In this document: in pieces, positions 15,622 through 47,100 of the stretch
Layout of the letters: the number at the start of each line of letters is the position of its first letter
How positions within the stretch are numbered: the first letter of the stretch is position 1
IMG/VR virus record: IMGVR_UViG_3300026549_000047
Location: 1-52,157 of that record
Strand: one strand, 5' to 3'
DNA length: 52,157 nt
Source of the DNA: a virus
Taxonomy: Duplodnaviria; Heunggongvirae; Uroviricota; Caudoviricetes
The notes under the pieces: generated by a model
The model's database searches: none
What the model was told of the DNA's origin: nothing
The model's input: the letters and a program-made list of their open reading frames with translations, nothing else
Position numbers and translations under genes: made by a program

Positions 15622-18102
15622 TTATTGTTTAGTCCAGTTCAGCCAGGTGATCAGTGTACCTGCACCTGCATCACTAAATGTCTTCTCAGTCTCGCTGAAC
15701 TGAGCTTCCTGAATTTCAGGTTCTGTAGTAGCGGCGGGAGCGGCTTTTGCCTCCATAATCTGAGCAACACCTTCCTCAACAGTAGCCTTTACACTCTGAA
15801 TAGCAGCGAGAGCCTTGTCCTCGATCTCCTCAACTGTGGGAGCGGGAGCGGGTTCTACAGGCTGAGCCTCAGCAACGGGCTGTTCAGCTACGGCAGGCTG
15901 TGCGGCAGGAATAACTGCTTGAGCAACAGGATCTGCAGAAGGCTGTGCAATAACGGGCTGTGCTACGGGAGCGATTGCCTGAGCGAAGTACTTGTCAAAC
16001 AAGCTAGAGAACTTCTTCTCTTCACCTTCCTCCTCTTTAGGAGCTTCCTCTTCGGCTTTCTCCTCTTCCTTGCTACCACCAGTAAGTCCCTTAGCCTCTT
16101 CCTCGGTGATCTTTGTGACGTCAATTTCATCCTCATCCTTCAGAACAGCCTTGGTGAACTCACCAGCATTTTCTTTATCTTCAATAACAGCAGTCTTGTC
16201 GTCGACCGGAGTAATGACTTCCTTCTCAGACTCTACGGTAGAACCAGTCTCAATAGCTTTCTCGATCTCGTTCTGATCTGCCTCCTCAGAGAACAGACGC
16301 TCCATGTAAGCGGTGAACTCCTCACCCTCACTGAAGTAACGAGTCTCAGCCTCATTGGTCCAATCGTAAGCAGAATAATCCTTCTCCTCAGCCTTACCCA
16401 TCAGGTTCTGTGCATCTTCCTCACTCATAGGATGAACGTTCATAGCCTCGTCGTCAATCATAGTAACCTTGGTGAACTCACCATTACCTTTATCCTGAAC
16501 AACGGCTGTCTTGTCATCCACTGGAGTAATAACCTCAGTAGGAGTCTCAACGGGCTCACCACCCTCGATAGCTGCCTCAATGGCATCCTGGTCAGACTCC
16601 TCAGAGAACAGACGCTCCATGTAAGCAGTCATAGTCTCAACCTCAGACTCGCTGAAGAAACGGGTTTCTGCCTCGTTAGTCCAGAGCTGGTCGTTCTCAC
16701 TAAACTCCTTCTCACCCTCCTCAGCTACGGGCTCTTCTTTACTAGCTGCACCAGTACCAGTCTGATCATTCTCGTCAGACTCGGCCTCAATGATGCTCTC
16801 GTTGCCAGTAATAGCACTAGCCTCCTCAGGAGTAATGGGCTGCAGACGCATATCCTCGCCTTCCAGAGTAGCCTTTGTTACTTCGCCACCATCCTGGATT
16901 ACGGCATTCTGCGCGTCAATAGGAGTGATAATAGCACCACCCATGTCTACGGGCTTACCACTGTTAATAGCCTCCTCAACCTGATCGCGGGTATCAGCAA
17001 TACCAGCAGCGTGCTCAGAGAAGAGACGGCTCATAAATACTGTATCATTTGTACGGTAGTTGTAGGTGAAGAACGACTGAGCACCATAGTGTTCACAGTA
17101 CTCCTTCTGCTCAACAGCCTCGTCAACGTCACCAGCGGCAGGATTAGCACCCAGACCCTCCAAGAGATTGATTGCGTACTCACGAGCACTGTCCTGATTA
17201 TCGAAAATCTGAACAGCCTCTACGCCATCCTCCTCCAACTGAGCCTTGAGCTGCTCTGCACTCTCCTGATCGTATTCCTGTGCATCTACGATAATGTGAT
17301 CGTAGGGCTGAACACCAATCACAAAGAGAGGCATAAACTGCTCTTCCTCGCTAAAGTTCTTGCTATCAAGCTCCGTAACCTCCATGTTCTCGTCGTCAAT
17401 CGTTACCTTGCACTGATCACCTGTTGACTCTGAAGTGACAATTACAGCGTTATCCTCGTCGGCTGACTTCTCAATCTTCAGATCACCGACCTTACTTGTC
17501 TCAGCAGACTCAATAACCTCTGAGAACAGGTAATCGCAGAATTCCTGCGGCATAGAGAAAATCTTCTGCCAAGCAGTATTGTCTGAAGTTACACTGAATT
17601 CCTTCTCTTCCTTACCGCACTCACACTCGGCCTTACCACACTCAGGGCATACTTCACCCTCAGCTGCGGGGCCTTCCTTAGCGGTTTCCTCAACTGACTT
17701 CTCGTGACCAGCCTCAGGGTTCAGACCACCATCGGGCTGATTAGGAGCGATAACAGACTCACCAGTCATGTGAGACTCTACGTTCTCATCAGGAGCACCC
17801 TGCTGGTTACCTTCAGTTACACCATCACTCGACGGATGAACAAACTTCTCAAGCTGCTCGTCCGGAACGGCAACGAGGTCATAGGTATCAGCCTCATCGG
17901 GATTCTTAGATGCGATTGTAATCTCACCCGTACCTTTATCAGTAATGGCTACATCGCCATTATCTTGCTTCTCATATTTAACTTCCTCGGTATCAACGAC
18001 GCCTTCCTTCTCTGCGGCTTTAATGTCATTGCCTACCTGCTCTTTGAGCTCATCGGGTGTCTTCTCAGAAAACATGAGCTCCATCAATCTTGTATTCTTC
18101 AT
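15622..18102 (-). CDS. Large acidic scaffold/prohead core protein with internal domain repeats
   Basis: 826 aa, very Glu-rich, between protease and capsid genes. Repeats WTNEAETRxFSE...MERLFSE...VITPVDDKTAV; about 15 x-F/Y-S/A sites. Confidence 0.7.
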   Translation of the reverse strand: MKNTRLMELMFSEKTPDELKEQVGNDIKAAEKEGVVDTEEVKYEKQDNGDVAITDKGTGEITIASKNPDEADTYDLVAVPDEQLEKFVHPSSDGVTEGNQQGAPDENVESHMTGESVIAPNQPDGGLNPEAGHEKSVEETAKEGPAAEGEVCPECGKAECECGKEEKEFSVTSDNTAWQKIFSMPQEFCDYLFSEVIESAETSKVGDLKIEKSADEDNAVIVTSESTGDQCKVTIDDENMEVTELDSKNFSEEEQFMPLFVIGVQPYDHIIVDAQEYDQESAEQLKAQLEEDGVEAVQIFDNQDSAREYAINLLEGLGANPAAGDVDEAVEQKEYCEHYGAQSFFTYNYRTNDTVFMSRLFSEHAAGIADTRDQVEEAINSGKPVDMGGAIITPIDAQNAVIQDGGEVTKATLEGEDMRLQPITPEEASAITGNESIIEAESDENDQTGTGAASKEEPVAEEGEKEFSENDQLWTNEAETRFFSESEVETMTAYMERLFSEESDQDAIEAAIEGGEPVETPTEVITPVDDKTAVVQDKGNGEFTKVTMIDDEAMNVHPMSEEDAQNLMGKAEEKDYSAYDWTNEAETRYFSEGEEFTAYMERLFSEEADQNEIEKAIETGSTVESEKEVITPVDDKTAVIEDKENAGEFTKAVLKDEDEIDVTKITEEEAKGLTGGSKEEEKAEEEAPKEEEGEEKKFSSLFDKYFAQAIAPVAQPVIAQPSADPVAQAVIPAAQPAVAEQPVAEAQPVEPAPAPTVEEIEDKALAAIQSVKATVEEGVAQIMEAKAAPAATTEPEIQEAQFSETEKTFSDAGAGTLITWLNWTKQ

Positions 18103-18109
18103 CTCTTGT

Positions 18110-18976
18110 TTAATGAATTGTTACTTGTGTACCGTCCAACTGGATAGCACCCTTCTCTACCAGGAGATCTAAGATGTTCTCTGGTGCATCAGGGTAGCGA
18201 TCCCTAATAATCTTAATGAATTGTTCAATACCAAAACTTTGGTTATTATACTCCAACTCAAGATCAGGGATAATACTTGAGTCCGTCAGCCAGGTATCAG
18301 CGTCCTCCGAATAGGTGTGTTCCTCTTCGATGGGAATACCATGTGCTTTCTTAAGAGCAATGATTCCCTTCTCTGGGAGACGCTCCTCTAGCTTTTCGAT
18401 AATATCCTCTCTCTTGATATCTCCATTCATAATAGACGGATCAAGTTCAAGAGTCTTTGTAACGGATATAATTAACTTTGAGAAAGTTTTCTGCATAATG
18501 TAAGCATTAGGGTCAATAGTAACTTGACCATCTTCGCTTACTTTAGCAAAACCTCTTTCCTCTAGGCTCTCACGATCGAGGGCCTCACTAAATGTCTTCT
18601 CATACTCCCCAGTGGTCATAGTTTGTCCAGAGAACTCTTTAAGTTTGTTCTCTAAGGGACTATCAAAGAGTGACTTTCTTTCGATTTCAGCCACGGGGTC
18701 TTTTGGTGTGTCTTTGTCGGTATCTTTCTCGTCCATAAGTTCTGCTTCCTCTACTTTCGGTGTAGGGAATAACTTAAGGATCATTCTTTTACCTCCACAG
18801 TTCGGACACACTGCGTGGGTAGGAGTTTCTGCAGTCTGGATTACGTGACCACAGTCCTGGCAAATAAGCTCATGCAGAATCTCCTCCGCTACTACCTCAG
18901 CTTCCTCATGGGGTTCGTCCGAGAATAACTTCAGACGCGAGGGATACTGGGCACTAAATAATTTAAGCCTTGCCAT
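18110..18976 (-). CDS. Head assembly/core protein with zinc ribbon
   Basis: CQDCGH...CPNCGG; RLKLFS twice, then KEFS, KTFS, KTFS and HTYS sites. Confidence 0.6.
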   Translation of the reverse strand: MARLKLFSAQYPSRLKLFSDEPHEEAEVVAEEILHELICQDCGHVIQTAETPTHAVCPNCGGKRMILKLFPTPKVEEAELMDEKDTDKDTPKDPVAEIERKSLFDSPLENKLKEFSGQTMTTGEYEKTFSEALDRESLEERGFAKVSEDGQVTIDPNAYIMQKTFSKLIISVTKTLELDPSIMNGDIKREDIIEKLEERLPEKGIIALKKAHGIPIEEEHTYSEDADTWLTDSSIIPDLELEYNNQSFGIEQFIKIIRDRYPDAPENILDLLVEKGAIQLDGTQVTIH

Positions 18977-20373
18977 TTTCTTCCTCCTTTATTTCTTGTT
19001 CAAGTTCAGCGGGGATTGGATTAGGACCAAATACCTCGTCTACCATACTCTGTGCAAACTCTGTATAAGCCTCCTTGATTTTCTGGAAACGCATAGGAGT
19101 AAGTTTACCTGTCTTTTGCATCTCCTGGAACGCCAAGCGATATGGAAGCTGAAGCTTTTGTGCACTAAGTCTCAGGTTCTTGGAAATAGAACTTGCACCA
19201 GTTAATGTATTGATCTGTTTACCAGCCAGAACTTCTTGAGTGAGACCAGAGAAAATCTGATTAATATCAGCTAGGAACAGAGACTTGAGTGTTTTTAACG
19301 TCTCTGGATCCATATTCTCGGCGCCACCCATCTGTTTAACAACTTGTTTATACTCTAAGAAAAGTCTACGGAATCGCATTCTAGTAGACATTTTCGTTGC
19401 ATAACGAAGTCTTTCTTTAATAGTTGCTACAGAAAATTCTTTTTCAGCGGGTTGTTTTATTTCCGCTGTTTCAGAAGCTAATTTTTCCTCTAGAACAGTG
19501 GTATCAGTTTTATCTTCAATGATAGTTGTAACACCGTTCGTACTAAACTCTTTTGCTTTTAATTTAGTAAAAGAGCCGTTAATTTTACTAGACTTAGCAA
19601 CATCCCCAAATTCAGAGAGATCAGAGAATGTCTTTACGGTGAGTTCCTCTGCCTTGACGGAAAATGTTTTCTCCTGTCCATCAGGAATAATCTCTGTCAC
19701 TGTTGCATCAACCCAGCTAGGGTTTAACGTAATGTCGAAGCCTTTCCGAAATTTATATACTCAAGTATATTAACTAGATCATATCATTCTAATTTCATAT
19801 ATGATCGTTGAACCTATTTTTCTAGGATGCTGATAATCTTTTCTGACTTCCAGCAATTAATGAGATTTTCTAAGACCAAGTCTTAGGCACAAAATCTATG
19901 CGAACTAGCTTCTTAAGTACATCAGTACCTGTTTGCTGACTATCCCAATACCCAAGTATGATAGCGCTTACTCCTGGATAAACATTATTTTCCAACAAGC
20001 CCCGAAGCCTCTTGATATTTTGGACAGCCTCATCATCCATGACTTTTTCGTCTAGGATAGTTGCCGTACACCACACCCACTGATCATTATCAATCCAGAT
20101 ATTGTCAATATAGTGTGTAGGGGCAGTGTTATTTCCAACAAGAAGAAGATTATCCTCTCGCCCGATTGAATTGGCGGCTGCAGGATTAAAATTAGTCTTC
20201 AGCCCCGTTTTTCCTCTGGAAATATGGGTACATGCGCCCAACAGTTTGTGTGATGCAATGGCGTTTTTAGCTTCTTCGCTGTTTAACCAGCTTTCGAAAA
20301 CTTCACGAGGTACGATGCTCCCATCACTAGCAGGAACACCACCCACGCTTAAAAGTTTAACTTTAATCTGCAT
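18963..20373 (-). CDS. Prohead maturation protease (T4 gp21-like), two exons: 20373-19898 and 19746-18963, 419 aa spliced
   Basis: His (GACTH) and GVSA motifs in exon 1. The exon 2 frame KGFDITLNPSW supplies the conserved FD...PS motif. Exon lengths 476+784 nt = 420 codons. Confidence 0.8.
19747..19897 (-). ncRNA. Minimal ORF-less group I intron (151 nt) in the protease gene
   Basis: P1 GCAU/GUGC with U.G at the 5' splice site; P4 UGCUG/CAGCA; P7 GAUCAU/AUGAUC; P9 AUAUAC/GUAUAU; terminal G; splicing restores the frame. Confidence 0.8.
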
Positions 20374-20391: not shown

Positions 20392-22197
20392 TTAATTATT
20401 ATATAAACTCTCATAATCGATTAGAGTATACGGATCAACATTATTAAAAATAACCTCTGTTAAAAAGTTATCAACTTTATCAAATGTATCTAAAACATAT
20501 GGAGTTTCGACTAAGTCGGGGTTATTTGATAAATTACAGAAATCTCTTAACTGTTTATCTCTTAATTTTTGTAGCTCAAATTCTTTCTCCTCTCTATTCC
20601 ATATATTTCTCCTATTTGAATAATGTTGGATTCCGTGATATTCTATGATTACTTCCCTATTATCAAGTTCTATAACAAAATCTGCTATGATAGAATTTGT
20701 TATTCTAGCAGTAAATATTGGATCTTTATAAGTTACTTGTTTTCGATAACTTATATTATGATTTTCGATCCAAGTTCTCACAAGAAGTTCTCCACTAGAC
20801 TCTTTCAATTGACCTATTAATCCACAAAGCATCTCTCTAGGGGTTCTTTCAAATTCAATCCCTGTTTCTGTATCCACAACAATTACTTTGTTTTTAAGTC
20901 CTGTGTATATCATTTTAGAGAAATCGTATCTAGGACTATACATTCCCTCTAATTTCCTTTTTATTTCTTCTGGATCATGTAAATACAGCTCTCGGAAATA
21001 CTTATTTCGACACTCTGGGCAACCTTGTCCACCTAAGTGTCTATATGGCTCTTGTAAAAATGATTTTTGACAACTATTACACCATATTTCTACTGGCGTA
21101 TTAACATCCCAAAACTTAACAAGATGATATCCGTATTTATTGCCATGGATTTTTACAGACCTATTGACAAAATCTTGTTTCCTCTCTTCTCTATTAATAG
21201 AATAATGTAAGAAACTAGCTAGAGAGGGAGGATAACTTAGCCTTTTTACTGAACTACTGTAAGTAGTTCTCCAAACTTCGTTATAGGGTTTTCCGGTTTT
21301 TGGATTATTCTCTTCTATAATTATATCTACATAGGTATAATCTTCTGATTTTATTTCTTTTGGTAAAAGATCAAAATTGAATTTATATAATATTATTCCA
21401 GCCTCTTTTCTGCGCTGTACAAAATCAACTATAAAATCTTCTTTTACCATACAATAGTCGGGCTCATAATATGGGTCTTTTAGCAGATTTTCCGCAATAT
21501 ATTGTTTTGTATAATATCCCACATTTCCATAGTAATATTCAACTTTCTTTTTAGCCCATAGAGGAGACCCTATATCTTTAGTGTCCAATTCTAATAACCA
21601 ACGACATTCCCAAGAAAGATAATCCAGGCCGTTACTAAGTAATCTTTTCTTTAAAATATTTCCGGAAGGAAACCATGTTCCTAATTCAGGTACAAAATAG
21701 AACCTTCTTCCGTGATCTTTGTTTTTCCCTATATGAAAAAGGGCAGTCATTATTATTGGTTTATAGAGATCTATAGGAACTAGTTTATTATTTATTTTGC
21801 TCTTTTCTCGAATACTTTCAAGTTGTGATTTTTCAAATTCCTTGAAAATATAGTAATCTTTCATCTTACTACTAAATCGAGTTATTCTTTTCCTAATGAT
21901 CTGCCCAGTCGTCCCTTCGTATCTTGCCATATCTAAAATAGAAAACCCTTTCTCTTTTAGTGATAAGTATAAATCTATTTTAGTAAACTCTAAATACCTG
22001 CTCCTAGTTGTACCTATAATTTTATCTATGAGCATATTCACGGTTCGCTGTGAGGCTGAAGGGATGTTAAAATACTTCGCACCTATTTCAGATGTAGTTA
22101 CATTGTCTATTATTAATTTCTTAAGCTCTGTTATTTTCTCTTCTGTTAAATAATAGTCAATGTCCACTTTAAATACGCTGTTAGTTACTTTCTTCAT
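20392..22197 (-). CDS. Free-standing homing-endonuclease-like protein (zinc knuckles, C-terminal PD-(D/E)xK domain)
   Basis: HLGGQGCPEC and IADFVIELDNREVIIEYHGIQHY motifs; same family as 4558-5769. Confidence 0.7.
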   Translation of the reverse strand: MKKVTNSVFKVDIDYYLTEEKITELKKLIIDNVTTSEIGAKYFNIPSASQRTVNMLIDKIIGTTRSRYLEFTKIDLYLSLKEKGFSILDMARYEGTTGQIIRKRITRFSSKMKDYYIFKEFEKSQLESIREKSKINNKLVPIDLYKPIIMTALFHIGKNKDHGRRFYFVPELGTWFPSGNILKKRLLSNGLDYLSWECRWLLELDTKDIGSPLWAKKKVEYYYGNVGYYTKQYIAENLLKDPYYEPDYCMVKEDFIVDFVQRRKEAGIILYKFNFDLLPKEIKSEDYTYVDIIIEENNPKTGKPYNEVWRTTYSSSVKRLSYPPSLASFLHYSINREERKQDFVNRSVKIHGNKYGYHLVKFWDVNTPVEIWCNSCQKSFLQEPYRHLGGQGCPECRNKYFRELYLHDPEEIKRKLEGMYSPRYDFSKMIYTGLKNKVIVVDTETGIEFERTPREMLCGLIGQLKESSGELLVRTWIENHNISYRKQVTYKDPIFTARITNSIIADFVIELDNREVIIEYHGIQHYSNRRNIWNREEKEFELQKLRDKQLRDFCNLSNNPDLVETPYVLDTFDKVDNFLTEVIFNNVDPYTLIDYESLYNN

Positions 22198-22286: not shown

Positions 22287-22396
22287 TCGGTTGTACAAAT
22301 GAAGTTTTATCAGAAAACATGATTTCTTCGTCAGTTTTCCTTTGTTCTCACAACTCGATCGAACGACCAGGCTCTTATTTCAAGACCACTGTGAGA

Positions 22397-22681
22397 TTAA
22401 TCTTTATGTCTTTTCCGAATTTCTTCTTTGAACTTTTTAAATTCGTTATCTTCAAAAGGTTCAATAAGTTTTCTTTCCTCCTCCTCTGGCATTTTCTCGC
22501 CAGTTCTTCTTTTATATTCTCGAATCTTTTTCATAGCTTCGAAAAATCCTGGACAACAGATATAATAGTGTTCACTATTGATTGCTTCATTTATTTTTCT
22601 CAGCTGATATTCCTGCTCTGATGTTGGATCTCCTTTTCCTGCCCAAACAAATCTATCTTTTTCTTTATCCATAGTTCCCAT
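22397..22681 (-). CDS. Hypothetical charged protein
   Basis: 94 aa; its ATG lies inside the stem of a three-way-junction element. Confidence 0.6.
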   Translation of the reverse strand: MGTMDKEKDRFVWAGKGDPTSEQEYQLRKINEAINSEHYYICCPGFFEAMKKIREYKRRTGEKMPEEEERKLIEPFEDNEFKKFKEEIRKRHKD

Positions 22682-22991: not shown

Positions 22992-23462
22992 CTACTTGAA
23001 ATCTATTAAAGGATTCTTTTTGACTTCTTTTTTATACTTCTTGAAGTCTACTATCTTCTTAGCCTCTTTATCCATGCCATTATTTTTGAAAGCTTTGTAC
23101 ATATCTACTACATCCCCCGTTTCGTCGGCATTAAAATACTGCCCATTTTTGCCAGGCTTAGACTTAGGGACTACTCTAGATTCTGCATAACCACCATGCC
23201 CTAATTGACGTTGAGTTCTTACAGCAGCTGCTTCTGAAAGTTCTCTTGAGGTTTTCTCGATACCCTTTTTAGATAACTTTCTATCAAGATTAACTGCCTC
23301 TTCTGCGACGATGTTGTGATGTCTTCCCTTTTCAGCAGCACTTTTTAGATGACCAAGATATCCTCCACCATTCTCTTTAGTTCCTATCTCTTTGAGTATA
23401 TTAGACTTCTTAACTAATTTGAATGCTCTAGAGGTGAATAATTTATTCCTCAATATAATCAT
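22992..23462 (-). CDS. Leader-bearing basic protein (MIILRNKLFT)
   Basis: 156 aa with leader. Confidence 0.8.
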   Translation of the reverse strand: MIILRNKLFTSRAFKLVKKSNILKEIGTKENGGGYLGHLKSAAEKGRHHNIVAEEAVNLDRKLSKKGIEKTSRELSEAAAVRTQRQLGHGGYAESRVVPKSKPGKNGQYFNADETGDVVDMYKAFKNNGMDKEAKKIVDFKKYKKEVKKNPLIDFK

Positions 23463-23503
23463 TTCTCTCCTTATACTGAGGGATTACTGTCAATTTTAGC
23501 TTT

Positions 23504-23545
23504 TTGCCCCCCCCCCCCAGTATTCAAATTTAAGTGGGAGAGCAA
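23504..23545 (-). promoter_or_regulatory. G12-tract hairpin 1
   Basis: C12 at 23507-23518 on the plus strand; TTGC/GCAA outer stem; 45 nt before the ATG at 23462. Confidence 0.65.
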
Positions 23546-23551
23546 CAGTTT

Positions 23552-23803
23552 TTATTTCATCAATCTAGAAATCTCCTTAGCGAATTCTTTATCTGACATC
23601 TTCGTAGCTTCTGCTCGACCAATTCGCTTTAAAGCAGCTTCTCTAGTATTCTTTACTTTGTCCGAGTTGTAGTGACCTGGCTTACTCCACTCATTGACCT
23701 TCTTTAAGTTAGAATCCAAAAACTCGACGGCTTTGGGTTTCATTCCTTTTATTCTTCTCTTTGCCAGGTCTTGAATAAAGTCTGCCTTTCGTTTAATGAT
23801 CAT
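23552..23803 (-). CDS. Leader-bearing small basic protein (MIIKRKADF)
   Basis: 83 aa. Confidence 0.7.
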   Translation of the reverse strand: MIIKRKADFIQDLAKRRIKGMKPKAVEFLDSNLKKVNEWSKPGHYNSDKVKNTREAALKRIGRAEATKMSDKEFAKEISRLMK

Positions 23804-23920
23804 ATCACCAACTCATCTTTAGACTTATTGATCGAACAGAACCAGTTGCCTTAGGAAGAATAAATTTTCTCCTAAGTATTCTACGAGCAGGTTCAAGTCG
23901 ACCAAAGAAGTTTTTAGTCA

Positions 23921-24415
23921 TTACTTCATAAGTTTATGTGCTGCCAATAATCCTCCAGCAACACCTATTGTACTTCCAACAAGACCTCCAGCTTTCGAAT
24001 AATTACCAGGATGCTTTTCTGGATTTGCTAGGACAGCTTTGTTCTGATTTATGAGACCATGAATTCCATTAATTATCTTCTGCTTATTTTTATTTAGAAG
24101 ATTATAGTCATATTCGTCGGGGTCATCCCAATTCATTCCATACTGGTTAAGAAATGGTAATATATCATCGTCGCTAGTTAGTTTTCCGATATTTCTACCA
24201 GAAATAGTATGAGTGTTAAGATATTTAATCAAATCCTCTCGGGATTTCAATTGATCCTTTTGAGATTTAATATCTTTCTCATTAAGTGGTTTCTTGAATT
24301 TAGCTCCAATTTTTTCACCAATCCGTCCACCAACTAAACCACCAGCTACATATCCAGTACCGTATCCTAATACTTTTCCAGTTGTTGAAAAGTTTTTATT
24401 TCTTAGGATTATCAT
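23921..24415 (-). CDS. Leader-bearing glycine-zipper protein (MIILRNKNFS)
   Basis: 164 aa; GxxxG segments at both ends. Confidence 0.8.
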   Translation of the reverse strand: MIILRNKNFSTTGKVLGYGTGYVAGGLVGGRIGEKIGAKFKKPLNEKDIKSQKDQLKSREDLIKYLNTHTISGRNIGKLTSDDDILPFLNQYGMNWDDPDEYDYNLLNKNKQKIINGIHGLINQNKAVLANPEKHPGNYSKAGGLVGSTIGVAGGLLAAHKLMK

Positions 24416-24854
24416 TTTTCTTCTCTTTTATTTTCTTAGCCAATTTAGAAGTGGCTCCAGCCCCAACCAAAGCAAGACTAGCAATCTGTGCTTTCTTCAT
24501 TCTCTGGAAGGGCTTATTTCTCCTAACTGTCCTTAAAGCCATTTCATAACCACGCTCAGCTTCTTTCTGTGCTAACTTTTTTGCCTTAGCTTTCAACGAG
24601 GCCTTGTACTTCTCTTCCTGACCAGTTGCTCTGGCCATTGCTAGGTCGATGGCGTCTGGTTTGATTGTTTTATGAACCTGTATATCATTTCCAACCCTCT
24701 TACCACCAACTTTTTCGGCTGCTTTATCGAGGGCCTTGTTTATGATATGTTTTTGAGCAATCCCCGTTCCAACAATTGTTCCGGCTCCTGCTGCAATGGC
24801 TACATTTTCAGCTTTATCTTTTTTAGAGAAGAATTTATCTCTAAGTATTATCAT
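24396..24854 (-). CDS. Leader-bearing basic protein (MIILRDKFFS)
   Basis: 152 aa; 20-bp overlap with the next leader. Confidence 0.8.
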   Translation of the reverse strand: MIILRDKFFSKKDKAENVAIAAGAGTIVGTGIAQKHIINKALDKAAEKVGGKRVGNDIQVHKTIKPDAIDLAMARATGQEEKYKASLKAKAKKLAQKEAERGYEMALRTVRRNKPFQRMKKAQIASLALVGAGATSKLAKKIKEKKNDNPKK

Positions 24855-24873
24855 TTATTTAACAAATATTTAA

Positions 24874-25638
24874 TTAAACCACTCTGCTATTCTTGACTAA
24901 CTTAATGGCGCTTAATAAACATTCACAATACTTTCTCATATCAAATCCAGTATCACCATATTTATTATCCCACGCATCTAATCTATTAGCTAGTAGTTTA
25001 TTGTACTTTGGGTCAAAATTGATTTCTATTGCCCCAAATAAGTCATTATCTTTTATTCTCCACTCTTTGCGAGGATTATATGTTCTATCTTGAACATACC
25101 ACGCTTTCCTATCGAAATCCCAAAGATAGACTAGTTCATTACCAAAGGTGAATAAAACTTCAGCATAATCACCAGCACCCTTAGCACTAGGATCTGACAT
25201 ATAGTCTTCTCTATATGATCTGATTTCTTCAGGTTTAGCCAACACCATAAAACTTGGGAAACATTTCCAGATAAACTTTTGCCCTTCCTCAGGAACAGAT
25301 TTCAAAATTCGAAAATTGTAAGAAGATAATGCTGCTAATTTAGCATATTCCTTAATCTCTTTACAATATTCGTTAAAATTAGCATCCATTGGTACGTCAG
25401 AAAATTTCTTTTCAAGAGGACCGTGATCACCTTTACTGTGATCATTGCTAGTACTACCTGTTGCTGAATGTTTTTCTTTGATACCTTTAATGAAACCAAC
25501 CATTGCACCAAGAATAGTTCCTGGCCATAAGAAGTATAATTTAGCGTTCCCGCCGATAGGTATTCTAGGAGTAAACTTCTTTGCCCAATCAACAGTACTA
25601 GACCAAATACTAAATTGTTTATTTCTTAGAATTACCAT
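24874..25638 (-). CDS. Leader-bearing protein (MVILRNKQFS) with a TM segment, an internal KKFS site and a globular C-terminal domain
   Basis: 254 aa. Confidence 0.8.
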   Translation of the reverse strand: MVILRNKQFSIWSSTVDWAKKFTPRIPIGGNAKLYFLWPGTILGAMVGFIKGIKEKHSATGSTSNDHSKGDHGPLEKKFSDVPMDANFNEYCKEIKEYAKLAALSSYNFRILKSVPEEGQKFIWKCFPSFMVLAKPEEIRSYREDYMSDPSAKGAGDYAEVLFTFGNELVYLWDFDRKAWYVQDRTYNPRKEWRIKDNDLFGAIEINFDPKYNKLLANRLDAWDNKYGDTGFDMRKYCECLLSAIKLVKNSRVV

Positions 25639-29044: not shown

Positions 29045-31096
29045 TTAAAATATATTTTCCAACATGCTCTGGAACTGTAGGTTAGAATCTTCTTTAGCTG
29101 ATTTAACCATATCAGTAACCAGGTGTAACTGTTTATCGACTCCATTCGAATATCCTTGTTCCTCACCAGCATCAATAGACATTTTCAGACTATAACAAGC
29201 TGAGGCAAGTGAATCCCAGACGTCCTTAGAGCCTTTTCCATTATTCCTATCAAAGACTTGCGGATTGTTTGTAGCCTTAGTCGGGTGATCTATCTTATAT
29301 CCCTTTCCCGTCGGTACATATCTTAAGTCATAGGCCTCTCTTTGAAGTCGTCTGTTTTCGGGTAATGAGATTAATCCCTGCATAATCAAGTTCTTCAGGT
29401 AGAGAGCTGGTTCACAAGGAACATTATCTGTTGAGATTCGCCCATTAGTCTTTATATTTTCACGCTCACAGTCTTGTAAGATTTGTTTTGAATATGCCTG
29501 GTCGGCTGATACTATAACATTATAATCTTTTTTCAAGGCCATAATTAGGTCAAAGACGTGATGCAAGCTTGTCTCCTGTCCATCTTTTCTCGCCACTGCC
29601 ACAGTGAAATAACATTTTACCTTAGGCATTTTTGAGTCTCCCATAAATTCCCAGTGATCAAACTGAACACAGCTTATTCCAGCATAGTCATTATTCGTTG
29701 CTAGGTCTAAGCCAATCCAAATAGAAGTCCCGAACGGAATCATGTCTATGGCGGGTTGAAGTTTATCTATAAGTCGATCTGTCTTATCGAAGAAATCAAC
29801 GGTTACGACTTCTGGAATGGGGTTCTTTATACCTCTACTACACTCCACCAACTTTTTAATTGATCCATTAAAGAATAGATCTGATGAACTTGTTGAGATA
29901 CCGCACTTATCTTGTAGCATCTTAATCAAGTTTTGTTTTGCCTCCACCTTAAGCTGGATAGGAACATTTATAACACGCTCAGGGTCTTGATCAAGGGCAA
30001 GTTTATAGCCTTCTGGTAAAATCTGAGCAGGGTATTTTCCATCACCAGTATAGACAGGAAACGTTACTCCTTTAGAATCAACATAATCTTGAGGCTTAAC
30101 AGCAAAATGTGTTGGGTGACAATAGTAAGTAAGCTCTCTAGGGGAATTATCTAGGAACCATTCAGTCGAGGAATTATCTCCTTTACTAGACGAGTCTATA
30201 ATGAGATTACCCACCATCTTAAGCGCTTGGGAATTGAAACGCGAAGTCATACGACCATAGGCCGACTCAACAATTCCCTGAGCTCTTTCTGGGTTAGGGT
30301 AGAAATTTAACTCACTTAGAATATAGCAATATTTATATCATGTTTGACACAACATTTGGAATATATCTTTAGCCAAAAGGCTAGTTAAGCACATATTCTC
30401 TAAACCAGGATTTCTGGCTTGGCATTAAGATTTATCTATTCGCCAAATTATCTAAACTGATTATCTACAGAGTTTCCCTTGTAGACGGCCAATTAAAACC
30501 AATACATCAGATCCCAGACCTACGCGTCCACCTAAAGGACCAGATGTAATAAATTGGAGTTTAAATTTCCTTTTAACGTTTTTGAAAAACGGAACTTTCA
30601 TCAATGCTTCATCCTTAAACCACTTAATAAACTCAGCGTATCCTACGTTTTCATCTCGATGGGTCACAACGAAGGAAAAGGGTTTAGGGACGAGGTGAAG
30701 AGTTTTAGAAGGGTTTTTCATACAGAGAAGTCTTGCATAACAATTAGCCATGCAAAGTCTCGAAACTGTAGATTTGCCAATTCCTATGGCTCCCGATAGT
30801 ATTAGAAACGGATATGCTGTGGTCACCTCGGATGGAAATATCTTTGGTAACTCATCTCTCCAAAACTTATATATAGATCTACCACCATCAAAGAAATCAG
30901 CACTTCCTAGGTAGTAGTCATCAGAGTATAATTGTTCTATTGTTGGAGGCATTCTGTTATACCCATTTACCTTCAAAAATACTAACTTTTTCTCTCTTTC
31001 TGATAAATTTGTATATTGTGTTTGAAAAGTTATCCCAGCTAGTTCATCCGTCAGATCCCTAGAAGGATCAAATTGATCTATAAACTTCTGGTTCAT
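29045..31096 (-). CDS. terL: Terminase large subunit, two exons: 31096-30498 and 30326-29045, 626 aa spliced
   Basis: Walker A ILSGAIGIGKST; splicing rebuilds the Walker B region DVLVYILSE; RNase H-like WIGLDLAT and KDVWDS motifs. Exon lengths 599+1282 nt = 627 codons. Confidence 0.85.
30327..30497 (-). ncRNA. Small ORF-less group I intron (171 nt) in terL
   Basis: P1 GGU/GCC; P2 with GAAA loop; P4 UUGGC/GCCAA; P7 GAAUAU/AUAUUC; P8 UAGCC/GGCUA; terminal G; frame restored. Confidence 0.8.
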
Positions 31097-44115: not shown

Positions 44116-47100
44116 TTAAAGATCTGTAAAATTATACGGATTAGTTAGTATTTCTTTATCGTATAGAAGTTTCTTTCGATTATCAATATTCTCTACAAGA
44201 CTCATAGCATATTCTGCATACTCGGGGGTTACTTGAATTAGACGTCTGGTTTGCTCATTGTAGAAAGAATAATACACATCCTCTCGTTCAAGAGCACCTA
44301 CATTTATTTTTACACTAGATTGTCAGTCCAGTATGAGTCTTAAAAAACTCCACACCCTCTCGGGTCGTGATAAGACTATATCATCACCTACGACTTTACG
44401 TTTAGGTGTCCCGCTTTTCGAGTGGTCATTAATGACTTACCACCCTACTCCTTTTCAAGATAGTCGTTGTCAGTTTTCACTAAGCGAATCATCTCTATTC
44501 TCAGGATTATTACACTTCGGTACCTGAGACCTAACGAGAAGTTTCCGCAACAACGGGATTTTCATTACATATTTCTACGTAATGGGACCAGTTTCATTAA
44601 TCCTTTGAAACGTCTAAATTTCTTACTCGTATCCATTCCCACACAAAATTGAGATCCTGGAATACGTGGATCACTTGGATAGAAATATTTTCCACCTTGT
44701 TCAAATATTGGAGATTCAGCAATATAAACCAAACCAAAATCGATCATAAACCTAGCAAACTTCAAGATAGTATACAATATACCTTTCTGGATGCTAAGTC
44801 CATCTTCATCGGCCATTTTGTTCAAGAAATATCGTCACTATTTCCCGGTTCTCTTATGAACTCCTGTATGTCTCCATACAGATCAGACTATATTTTTACC
44901 CACGTCTTGAACGTTTGGGTATCCTATCTTTCAAACAGCCATTATTGACTTGCTGTCTTACTCCCATAGAGGGATAGTCGTTGTCTTGTTATAAAATTAA
45001 TCTTCGTTATAGTAGTTAAAGTCTGTTTGATGCTTACTGTTAAGCCTAAAAGTAATTGCTTGTCTAGTAAGTCCATAATGTTTTGCACATTCAGTAATTG
45101 AATTATAAATAACTCCTTCAGCAATAACTTTAGTAGCCATAGCTTGACGTGTTAGTGGGTTATTCATATTTTCAGCTCTTGTACAAATTTTTAAATTAGT
45201 TGCTCTATTATTTTGTCGATTAGTATCGAGATGATCTACGTGCAGGTTTTTGTCAATAGGTTTATTATCATTTAGAAAAACCTCTGCGACTGCACGATGT
45301 ACACTATAGCCATTAAAAGATCTATATTTTCCATTACTATCTAATGCACCTAGAGAAATAATATTTTTTGTCTTTAAATTCCGAACCAAGCCAAGCGGAT
45401 GGACTTCAAATTTTCCTGAAAAATGCAATTTCCATAAACTATCATCAATTGTCTCACCAGACTTAAGATAGTTTTCTATGTCAATGTTTACAATTTTCCA
45501 ATAACGTCCGTGGTATTTTACTCCCTCTGTCGTTTTATCCCTTATTCCTCTTTTTCGCAGCGTAGGGTGATTGTATATATCCTCATTTGAATATATTCTG
45601 TCTAATTGAGTTAACTCTCTGTCGTAATATGCCTCAAACCTTAGGTTACTCGTAAAAACAGCCATTCTTTTGTTGTTATTATTTTCAGTGACTGTTACCC
45701 AGCGTAGATTAGATAAAGCATAATTATATTTATTTCTATCAATATGATCTACGCAGTCTTTATCTTCACTTAATCTGGGAATAAATATTATAGCCAGTAA
45801 TCTATGGACAGAGGGTCGTAAAGTAGTTCTACCAGAAGAATCTGTAGCCAATACATATGAAGGATATTCATTAGAGAACAATACATTCTTAATAGTTGTA
45901 TTGAATCCACTGACTTTCCTAAGTACACCATTCCTATTTATCTCAAATGAGTGTTTAGTATTTATATTCGGATATACTAATTTTATATTAAACCACTCAT
46001 CTTGTATATCATCATAGAAATAATCCATGATATATCCATTAGAAGGATTCCAACACACTATTTCGCCATTTATTTCTCCCACCCGATAAGTGCTTTGATC
46101 TATGGCTCTATGTTCCATAAATAGTGAGTTTAAATCAGAGTCTTTTAATTTATCCATTATATCTCTTCGTATCATAACCTGAAATTTATTTTTGATTAAT
46201 TTTATAACAAAGCGAATTGTCTGTATTCTTAGGATTGTTACTAAGAGTTAACTACACCTCTTTAGTACCTAAGACTTAACCAGAGTTCCTCGCAACAATA
46301 GGATTCCTTAGGTGTATCTCTACACCTTCAGACACAAACTTTCGTTTTATCTGTAGCTATTACTAACTTTCCGTAACGAGTTTTCTTTTTAATCATTTCA
46401 AAAGCCTCTTCTGGACTTTTAGCATCTTTAATAACAGAGTTAACTGAAATACCAAGACCCATAGTACTGAAAATCGTAAAATATTCAGTATTATCCATCA
46501 TCTTATCGGCATTACAGTCACTAGTATCAAGAACCTTGCCTTTGAGGCCGCACACGGCTTTATACTTTACATCTATAGCTTTTCTAGCAGCCTTCAATGA
46601 ACCAGCAGGACTATCGCCCTCTGTAATGAAGAGTTCACAATTCCATCTTTCGCTAGGTCCAGCAGTAGCATCAGCAAAACCTTTCTTTAAGGTTCCTTTC
46701 ACTCTGTAAATTCCATTACCTCCTGCTGCATCCATAATCTTTTGTGCCTTCTCAACGGCCCCTAGTGATTTATGTGCTTCAGCCAAGGAGTTAAGTTTCT
46801 CTACATGCAAGTCCCAATACTCAGGATTCTTCCTGAAGATTCTCTGGATGTCCTTAACAACTTCTATGAAGTCTGTTGGCTTAACTTTAGCTATACTTTT
46901 TACCCTCACTTTATTCTGTGAGTCAAAGATAGTCTCATTTGCCAACATAATCACACACATCTTTAGGCCTGCATCCAGGTAAGAGTGTTTGATTTTATAG
47001 AAGTCCTTAATAGCAGTTTTAAAGAGAGTCTCTGCAATTGTTATGTGTTGACCAGTACAATCTAGACCATTAACAGATCCAAACTCAACTTTAGGAGAAA

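Follow-up and report, generated by a model that had tools for sequence, protein, structure and literature searches.

A spliced 151-nt group I-type intron with a P8-less core in the prohead protease gene of a giant phage from cattle gut

Introduction

Short group I introns without open reading frames (ORFs) are already known in Jug phages, and the available text of the study describing them (Sci Adv 2026, PMC12880540) gives a mean length of about 206 nt and 18.5 introns per genome, located in essential genes, with splicing of 37 of 76 introns supported by metatranscriptomes. The same text reports that the prohead protease is fragmented and that homing endonucleases are mostly free-standing, and it mentions relatives in ruminants. 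The introns are likened there to group I-like (GIR1) ribozymes, and the text searched contains no secondary-structure analysis and no mention of a loss of the P8 helix (PMC12880540). P8 is a helix of the P3-P9 catalytic domain in the group I consensus (PMC3984707). Our literature search, which left most subscription papers outside, found no relevant paper on natural group I introns that lack P8 or are the smallest of their kind.

Other described systems are also close to such introns. The Twort ribozyme, from one of the phage introns of type IA2 (T4 td, nrdB and sunY; Twort orf142), is about 100 nt longer than the intron described here. The Azoarcus tRNA-Ile intron (IC3, about 205 nt) is compact and ORF-less with few peripheral domains, and has P8, tetraloop-receptor contacts of L2 with P8 and of L9 with P5, and a high GC content. 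GIR1 of Didymium and Naegleria is a small ribozyme with a group I-derived core, in which P15 takes the place of P1 and which cleaves or branches without ligation of exons.

We describe here an ORF-less intron of 151 nt in the protease gene of a giant phage from cattle gut. It is located on the minus strand (19897 to 19747) of a window of 52,157 nt, by which we mean the whole stretch of DNA analysed, and this window is a portion of a 122-kb virus record that is 33% complete. The intron is very probably a functional, ORF-less group I intron belonging to a stripped-down lineage that is common in gut jumbo phages of the Bacteroidota type.

Source of the sequence and the protease locus

The protease locus is part of a head-gene cluster and lies upstream of the major capsid gene. 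ORFs of 167 codons (20373-19870) and 245 codons (19700-18963) flank the intron, and scans for promoters and terminators gave signals at chance level only. The sequencing runs that matched best were from bovine gut, and relatives having a protease gene more than 90% identical are found on contigs of up to 430 kb. Human-gut phage records of 220-380 kb that hold P8-less cores, and that were fetched via their introns, encode capsid proteins 80-82% identical to that of the focal phage. Judged by their size and habitat, these human-gut records would correspond to Jug phages, and the focal phage is probably a ruminant relative of the Jug phages (PMC12880540). Within the window, a 331-nt segment (22343-22673) with a 94-aa ORF inside is missing from contigs of runs X19 and X20 and represents a strain-variable indel.

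Splicing of the intron

In one assembled contig each of the metatranscriptome runs X1 and X2, which are two runs of a single bovine-gut biological sample, position 19898 is joined to 19746 and exactly 151 nt are skipped. The joint has no positional ambiguity and equals the predicted junction. Exon contigs in both runs stop exactly at the splice sites and are identical to the window over 1442 and 529 nt, and a 7.4-kb contig of run X19 traverses the intron unspliced. By a rough deconvolution, depth was 13.5 and 7.6 at the joint and about 6.8 and 5.0 along the path that includes the intron; since contig depth is not an expression measure, these values say only that spliced and intron-containing forms coexist. 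The assembled contigs show that in vivo the 151 nt are excised and the two exons become ligated at U|G, and this adds RNA evidence for the precise splicing of a P8-less intron. Other pairs of U|G boundaries also restore the reading frame, and only 19898|19746 agrees with both the homologues and the RNA.

The spliced gene product

When the 151 nt are removed (after U 19898, through G 19747), the exons form a single open frame of 419 codons, which reads LVR-M-KGFD across the junction. Exon 1 (19898-20373, minus strand) provides codons 1-158 plus 2 nt, with the invariant His50, His87 and Ser136, and its last base is the U of the 5' splice site; exon 2 (18963-19746, minus strand) provides the invariant Asp163, the PSW motif and a C-terminal extension. 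Intron-free homologues, 34 in number and 398-441 aa in length, align over the junction without gaps, and insert-free relatives read GTTCGCAT|GAAAGGC or GTTCGAAT|GAAGGGC directly across it. A first-pass annotation of this DNA had proposed a group I-type intron with these exact boundaries, whose removal restores this motif in a prohead protease and over whose junction intron-less homologues should align; the RNA joint, the homologues, the fold match given below and a family covariance model bear this out.

The identity as a protease came only via the intron-free homologues and a fold search. Sequence searches of Pfam, PHROG and PDB with the separate exons or a profile gave no protease match, GenBank phages contained no relative of the protease, and IMG/VR searches with exon 1 and with the exact intron core returned no matches. 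PHROG 207 (head maturation protease) was matched by 20 of 24 homologues. The fold comparison and the assignment of invariant residues were based on the intron-free homologue P0005 and its alignment, and the fold predicted for it matches that of T4 gp21 (PDB 5JBL) with a Foldseek E-value of 2e-5 (Z 12.7, rmsd 2.9 A over 131 residues). The proteins share the fold and the invariant His, Ser and Asp; they differ in having 19% identity and in a C-terminal extension of about 240 residues that the focal protease adds. His, Ser and Asp are invariant in the homologue alignment, with a Ser-Asp spacing of 28 residues. Because model residue 169 corresponds to residue 172 of gp21, the invariant Asp falls on gp21 residue 168, which we take to be the catalytic Asp. 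The spliced product is the full prohead protease, of the T4 gp21 type. Exon 2 encodes Asp163 at four codons from its beginning. If the intron is not spliced, the frame terminates at codon 167 and the strand bearing this residue is missing; an active protease would therefore require splicing.

A K/R-x-F-S motif recurs in the protease extension and in scaffold-like proteins (regions 15622-18976 and 22992-25638), and leaders of small proteins carry it too (M-I-I-L-R-N-K-x-F-S). It is a candidate signal for cleavage by the protease.

Structure of the intron

The intron occupies site B of the protease gene (19747-19897), as supported by the RNA joint, intron-free alleles and the family model, and all elements described below are on the minus strand. 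P1 is formed by exon GCAU (19901-19898) and guide GUGC (19890-19887) with a U.G pair at the 5' splice site, and P10 consists of 4 bp between UUUU (19894-19891) and GAAA of exon 2 (19746-19743); the P1/P10 region (19887-19901) is invariant among site-B variants. P2 (19870-19886) is a hairpin of 7 bp with a 3-nt non-GNRA loop. The 5' strand of P3, at about 19867-19860 (element 19859-19867), has one C.A mismatch with the 3' strand (19791-19798), which was assigned by cognate pairing and a permutation test in the family. P4-P5 (19828-19855) contains UGCUG/CAGCA plus a G.U pair in P4 (19855-19850 with 19833-19828) and 4 bp in P5, and is followed by the P6a hairpin and J6/7 UUCAAC (19807-19826); the P4-P5-P6 domain with P/Q elements is present.

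The 5' strand of P7, GAUCA (19802-19806), keeps the G-C and A-U pairs of the G-binding site, and the 3-nt linker AGA (19788-19790) is found where P8 is expected. J8/7 (AUGAUA) and the P7 3' strand UGAUC (19781-19777) together occupy 19777-19787, and the P3-P7 pseudoknot with its G-binding site (bulged base, G-C, A-U) is present. P9 (19755-19770) is a hairpin with a 6-bp core and a UUGA loop, and its stem is retained with a different sequence in the relatives L024, L046 and L054. The terminal G (19747) is the omega-G, and G ends all site-B variants. The helices listed in the first-pass annotation (P1, P2, P3 with one mismatch, P4, P5, P6a, P7 and P9) and its omega-G all exist in the sequence, and P10 is added here.

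GC content of the intron is 30%, and neither L2 nor L9 has a GNRA loop. The folding z-score is modest (-2.5). In the predicted minimum-energy fold, P7 is extended to give a long hairpin, which competes with both P3 and J8/7, and the active fold was therefore derived from comparison and not from computation.

Loss of P8 and the variant P7

Of the 20 nt between the P7 strands, 8 belong to the P3 strand and 6 to J8/7, with 3 nt preceding and 3 nt following the P3 strand. Since just the latter 3 nt (19790-19788) lie between the P3 3' strand and J8/7, a P8 hairpin cannot form, as the near-absence of P8 in the earlier description had implied. Among 12 P8-less introns, the pairing score of P3 was 5.8 for cognate versus 4.3 for non-cognate strands, and none of 5000 permutations scored as high. 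At the position of P8, 2-7 nt are present in 12 short-core introns versus 10-26 nt, mostly forming hairpins, in longer members. The site-B variant in L054 has 6-9 nt at this position and a U-A to C-G change in P3, and two introns at different sites having the same P3 carry a 20-nt P8 hairpin in one case and 5 nt in the other (L091, 89-213; L097, 1177-1281). The specificity of P3, the numbers of leftover nucleotides, L054 and the L091/L097 comparison together show that the loss is real. The P8 helix of the canonical consensus was not found in the focal intron, and sister introns bearing P8 share every other element. As judged by comparison of sequences, P8 is absent and the P3-P7 pseudoknot is closed by the 3-nt linker.

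P7 had been drawn by the first-pass annotation as a variant of six pairs, GAUCAU/AUGAUC. The variant itself stands: the two central pairs are swapped in a compensatory manner (C-G to U-A and U-A to C-G), and the helix is fully paired and retains the bulged C and the G-C and A-U of the G site. The helix proper has 5 bp, and the sixth pair is an extension that is also possible in most family members with a canonical P7. An extension of 3 bp is possible at 7 of 11 P8-less sites versus 2 of 11 sites with P8, which is a weak trend. Another true intron, L204, has the identical P7 variant yet a normal P8; the variant is therefore independent of P8 loss and mild. A pattern scan for cores with the variant P7 gave matches that were nearly all due to chance, with L204 as the one further true intron. 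None of the family members examined has a GNRA loop in L2 and few have one in L9, and the P8-containing members likewise lack these loops.

The first-pass annotation had also suggested a search with group I covariance models. Rfam RF00028 gave no match at E-values up to 10 in the 451 nt scanned, and none in the genome search. With a family covariance model built from 14 introns, all at other sites, the intron scores 71.3 bits (E 6e-10, E-values being rough), and a family-specific model is therefore needed for detection. The family sample was fetched by a short-gap pattern and is hence biased.

Comparison with known introns

The focal intron shares with the phage IA2 introns the geometry of P7 with a bulged C, a phage host and insertion in conserved motifs, and its core motifs P4 UGCUG/CAGCA, J3/4 AAU, J6/7 UCAAC and J8/7 may correspond to those of the IA type. 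It differs from the IA2 introns in lacking P7.1/P7.2, P8 and GNRA loops and in the variant central pairs of P7. Where the P7.1/P7.2 insertion would be, P7 is separated from the 3' strand of P3 by just 3 nt. The intron is as compact, ORF-less and poor in peripheral domains as that of Azoarcus, and has none of its P8, tetraloop-receptor bracing or high GC content. With GIR1 it has in common the small, group I-derived core; however, it has a standard P1/P10 and its exons are ligated, and it does not belong to GIR1. Compared with the mean of about 206 nt in the available text on the Jug phages (PMC12880540), its length is 151 nt. In its working the intron resembles the IA-type group I introns of phages; because neither P8 nor P7.1/P7.2 is found and the Rfam model does not match, it is filed as a P8-less variant, not as a canonical member.

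Introns of the same family

In close relatives, the protease gene has three intron sites (A, B and C) inside 90 nt, with introns of 136-155 nt. Introns at site A, just after the catalytic Ser motif, are 136-144 nt in length and thus can be shorter than the focal intron, have neither P2 nor P8, and form a P10 of 9 bp (L040, 3414-3549; L046, 3414-3550; L054). Those at site B, to which the focal intron belongs, are 149-153 nt, and those at site C are 147-155 nt with no P2 and a short P8. Among alleles more than 90% identical, the combinations B, C, BC, AC and ABC were seen; in L046-L054, one gene has three mini introns, and a 21-nt micro-exon between B and C encodes the catalytic Asp. Six assemblies contain the identical 151-nt intron, and variants 149-153 nt in length and 78-98% identical retain the helices.

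At least seven further short cores are present in the polymerase region of the genome, several of them with hundreds of nucleotides inserted in the P6 region, and more than 100 stretches of viral contigs fit the short-core pattern. The focal intron is therefore not unique, and P8-less cores recur in its genome and in related gut jumbo phages. Because several such introns have long P6 insertions, P8-less cores may also carry endonuclease genes and be mobile. The phage record has a cluster of more group I introns (G000:C1:85800-97000 and 68000-69300), in many of which 17-21 nt separate the P7 strands. In the terminase gene (about 30327-30497, minus strand), a short group I-like insert has the P7 variant GAAUA/UAUUC, a P8 and a family-model score of 27.8 bits. 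The topoisomerase B region has two larger group I introns detected by Rfam (44351-44609 and about 44864-46330, minus strand), one with an HNH ORF.

These data divide the earlier statement that the intron is unusually minimal. It holds against model introns; it does not hold within a large family in which relatives have, in the same gene, a 136-137-nt intron without P2 and P8.

Discussion

From group I biochemistry, the pairings P1 and P10 would align the splice sites, and a guanosine bound in P7 would attack after the U.G pair. The omega-G would then take the G site and the exons would be joined, completing two transesterifications. Because J8/7 has its full length, the active site may be intact and P8 may have been lost as a purely structural helix, along with the tetraloop contacts that it normally receives. 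Self-splicing in vitro at high Mg2+ is probably retained. We also lean, by a small degree, to the view that the RNA folds poorly alone and depends on general RNA chaperones, because of its core of 30% GC, the absence of GNRA loops and the competing hairpin of extended P7. T4 introns receive help from the host chaperones StpA, S12 and IF1 (PMC3984707).

The contigs joined at 19746-19898 might represent DNA (or RNA) of a co-occurring intron-less strain, as the same junction sequence is present as DNA in relatives (L040-45, L059-61), X1 and X2 derive from one sample, and RNA libraries may contain DNA. This explanation is extremely improbable: each fetched allele without intron B has intron C 21 nt downstream, whereas the joint contig is without it 30 nt into exon 2; the exon contigs flanking the joint are unbroken and identical to the window; no intron-free full-length protein nearer than 69% identity was found; and the joined sequence had no match among viral contigs in the IMG/VR search. 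Even if such a strain existed, the insert would still have to leave for the gene to work. The first-pass annotation had suggested that the intron gates head maturation. An unspliced mRNA gives no active protease, Asp163 being in exon 2, and the RNA assemblies hold both spliced and intron-containing forms, but nothing goes beyond this trivial need for splicing. Close alleles show at least five combinations of the introns A, B and C, the 34 more distant homologues have no intron, and the same type of intron is present in polymerase, terminase and other genes. This distribution is that of a mobile element, and neither a sensor nor a switch element was seen. Because of this patchy distribution, we regard a regulatory gate that times head maturation as very unlikely. 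The intron would rather be a selfish element that persists within a conserved catalytic motif, where it must splice well and not regulate.

Protein help, raised as a possibility in the first-pass annotation, might be stricter than general chaperones provide, if splicing needed a dedicated phage protein, such as a phage IF1 or a trans-maturase endonuclease, in place of P8 and the tertiary contacts. Against this, P8 deletion in engineered Tetrahymena ribozymes was reportedly found to be tolerated by Ikawa and co-workers in 2000. Points for such a cofactor are the AU-rich core, the rarity of GNRA loops throughout the family, and the IF1 gene of a complete relative with an 82% identical capsid protein (L265, G001:C1:13292-13489, E 4e-22); the available text counts IF1 among the core genes of the Jug phages (PMC12880540), and IF1 shows chaperone activity on T4 td (PMC3984707). 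However, the catalytic elements are all intact, the P8-containing members lack the same loops, and the relative that encodes IF1 has only one detected family intron. A splicing factor of the CRM-domain or TyrRS type was found neither in the 33% complete focal record nor in this complete relative, which is a weak negative. We therefore hold a strict need for a dedicated protein to be unlikely. Somewhat bolder, and improbable in our judgement, is a distinct subclass with a rebuilt catalytic domain (no P8, no tetraloop-receptor bracing and possibly an extended P7) that splices only with a phage-encoded protein, its own IF1 or a trans-acting endonuclease; if this were true, one phage factor would tie together the expression of head protease, polymerase and terminase. 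As to mobility, a free-standing gene for a homing-endonuclease-like protein of 601 aa lies directly upstream of the protease gene (20392-22197, minus strand; PHROG 559 HNH endonuclease, E 6e-29, and PHROG 9084). Spread of the ORF-less intron by collaborative homing with this endonuclease, a process known in phages (PMC3984707), is compatible with a stripped-down group I intron and is a tentative possibility. The endonuclease was found with 98-100% identity wherever upstream DNA of loci with the 151-nt variant allowed the check, and in L040-45 and L059-61 the same slot is filled by a 30%-identical paralogue, but 149-nt site-B variants exist in loci without such an upstream gene (L024-33, L046-53).

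Taken as a functional, stripped-down group I intron, the element is less surprising in view of the published short, spliced Jug introns and the reported dispensability of P8 in an engineered ribozyme. Since it is precisely spliced in an essential gene with a 3-nt linker in place of P8, it places the lower bound on a working natural core at 151 nt, and by comparison the predicted site-A intron would push this bound to 136 nt. Natural pairs with and without P8, such as L091 and L097, are ready test molecules for the requirements of ribozymes, and if these introns work without protein, they may be useful as short scaffolds for tools of RNA circularisation and trans-splicing. For the phages themselves, because the Rfam model misses the intron, essential genes of these gut jumbo phages are called as fragments.
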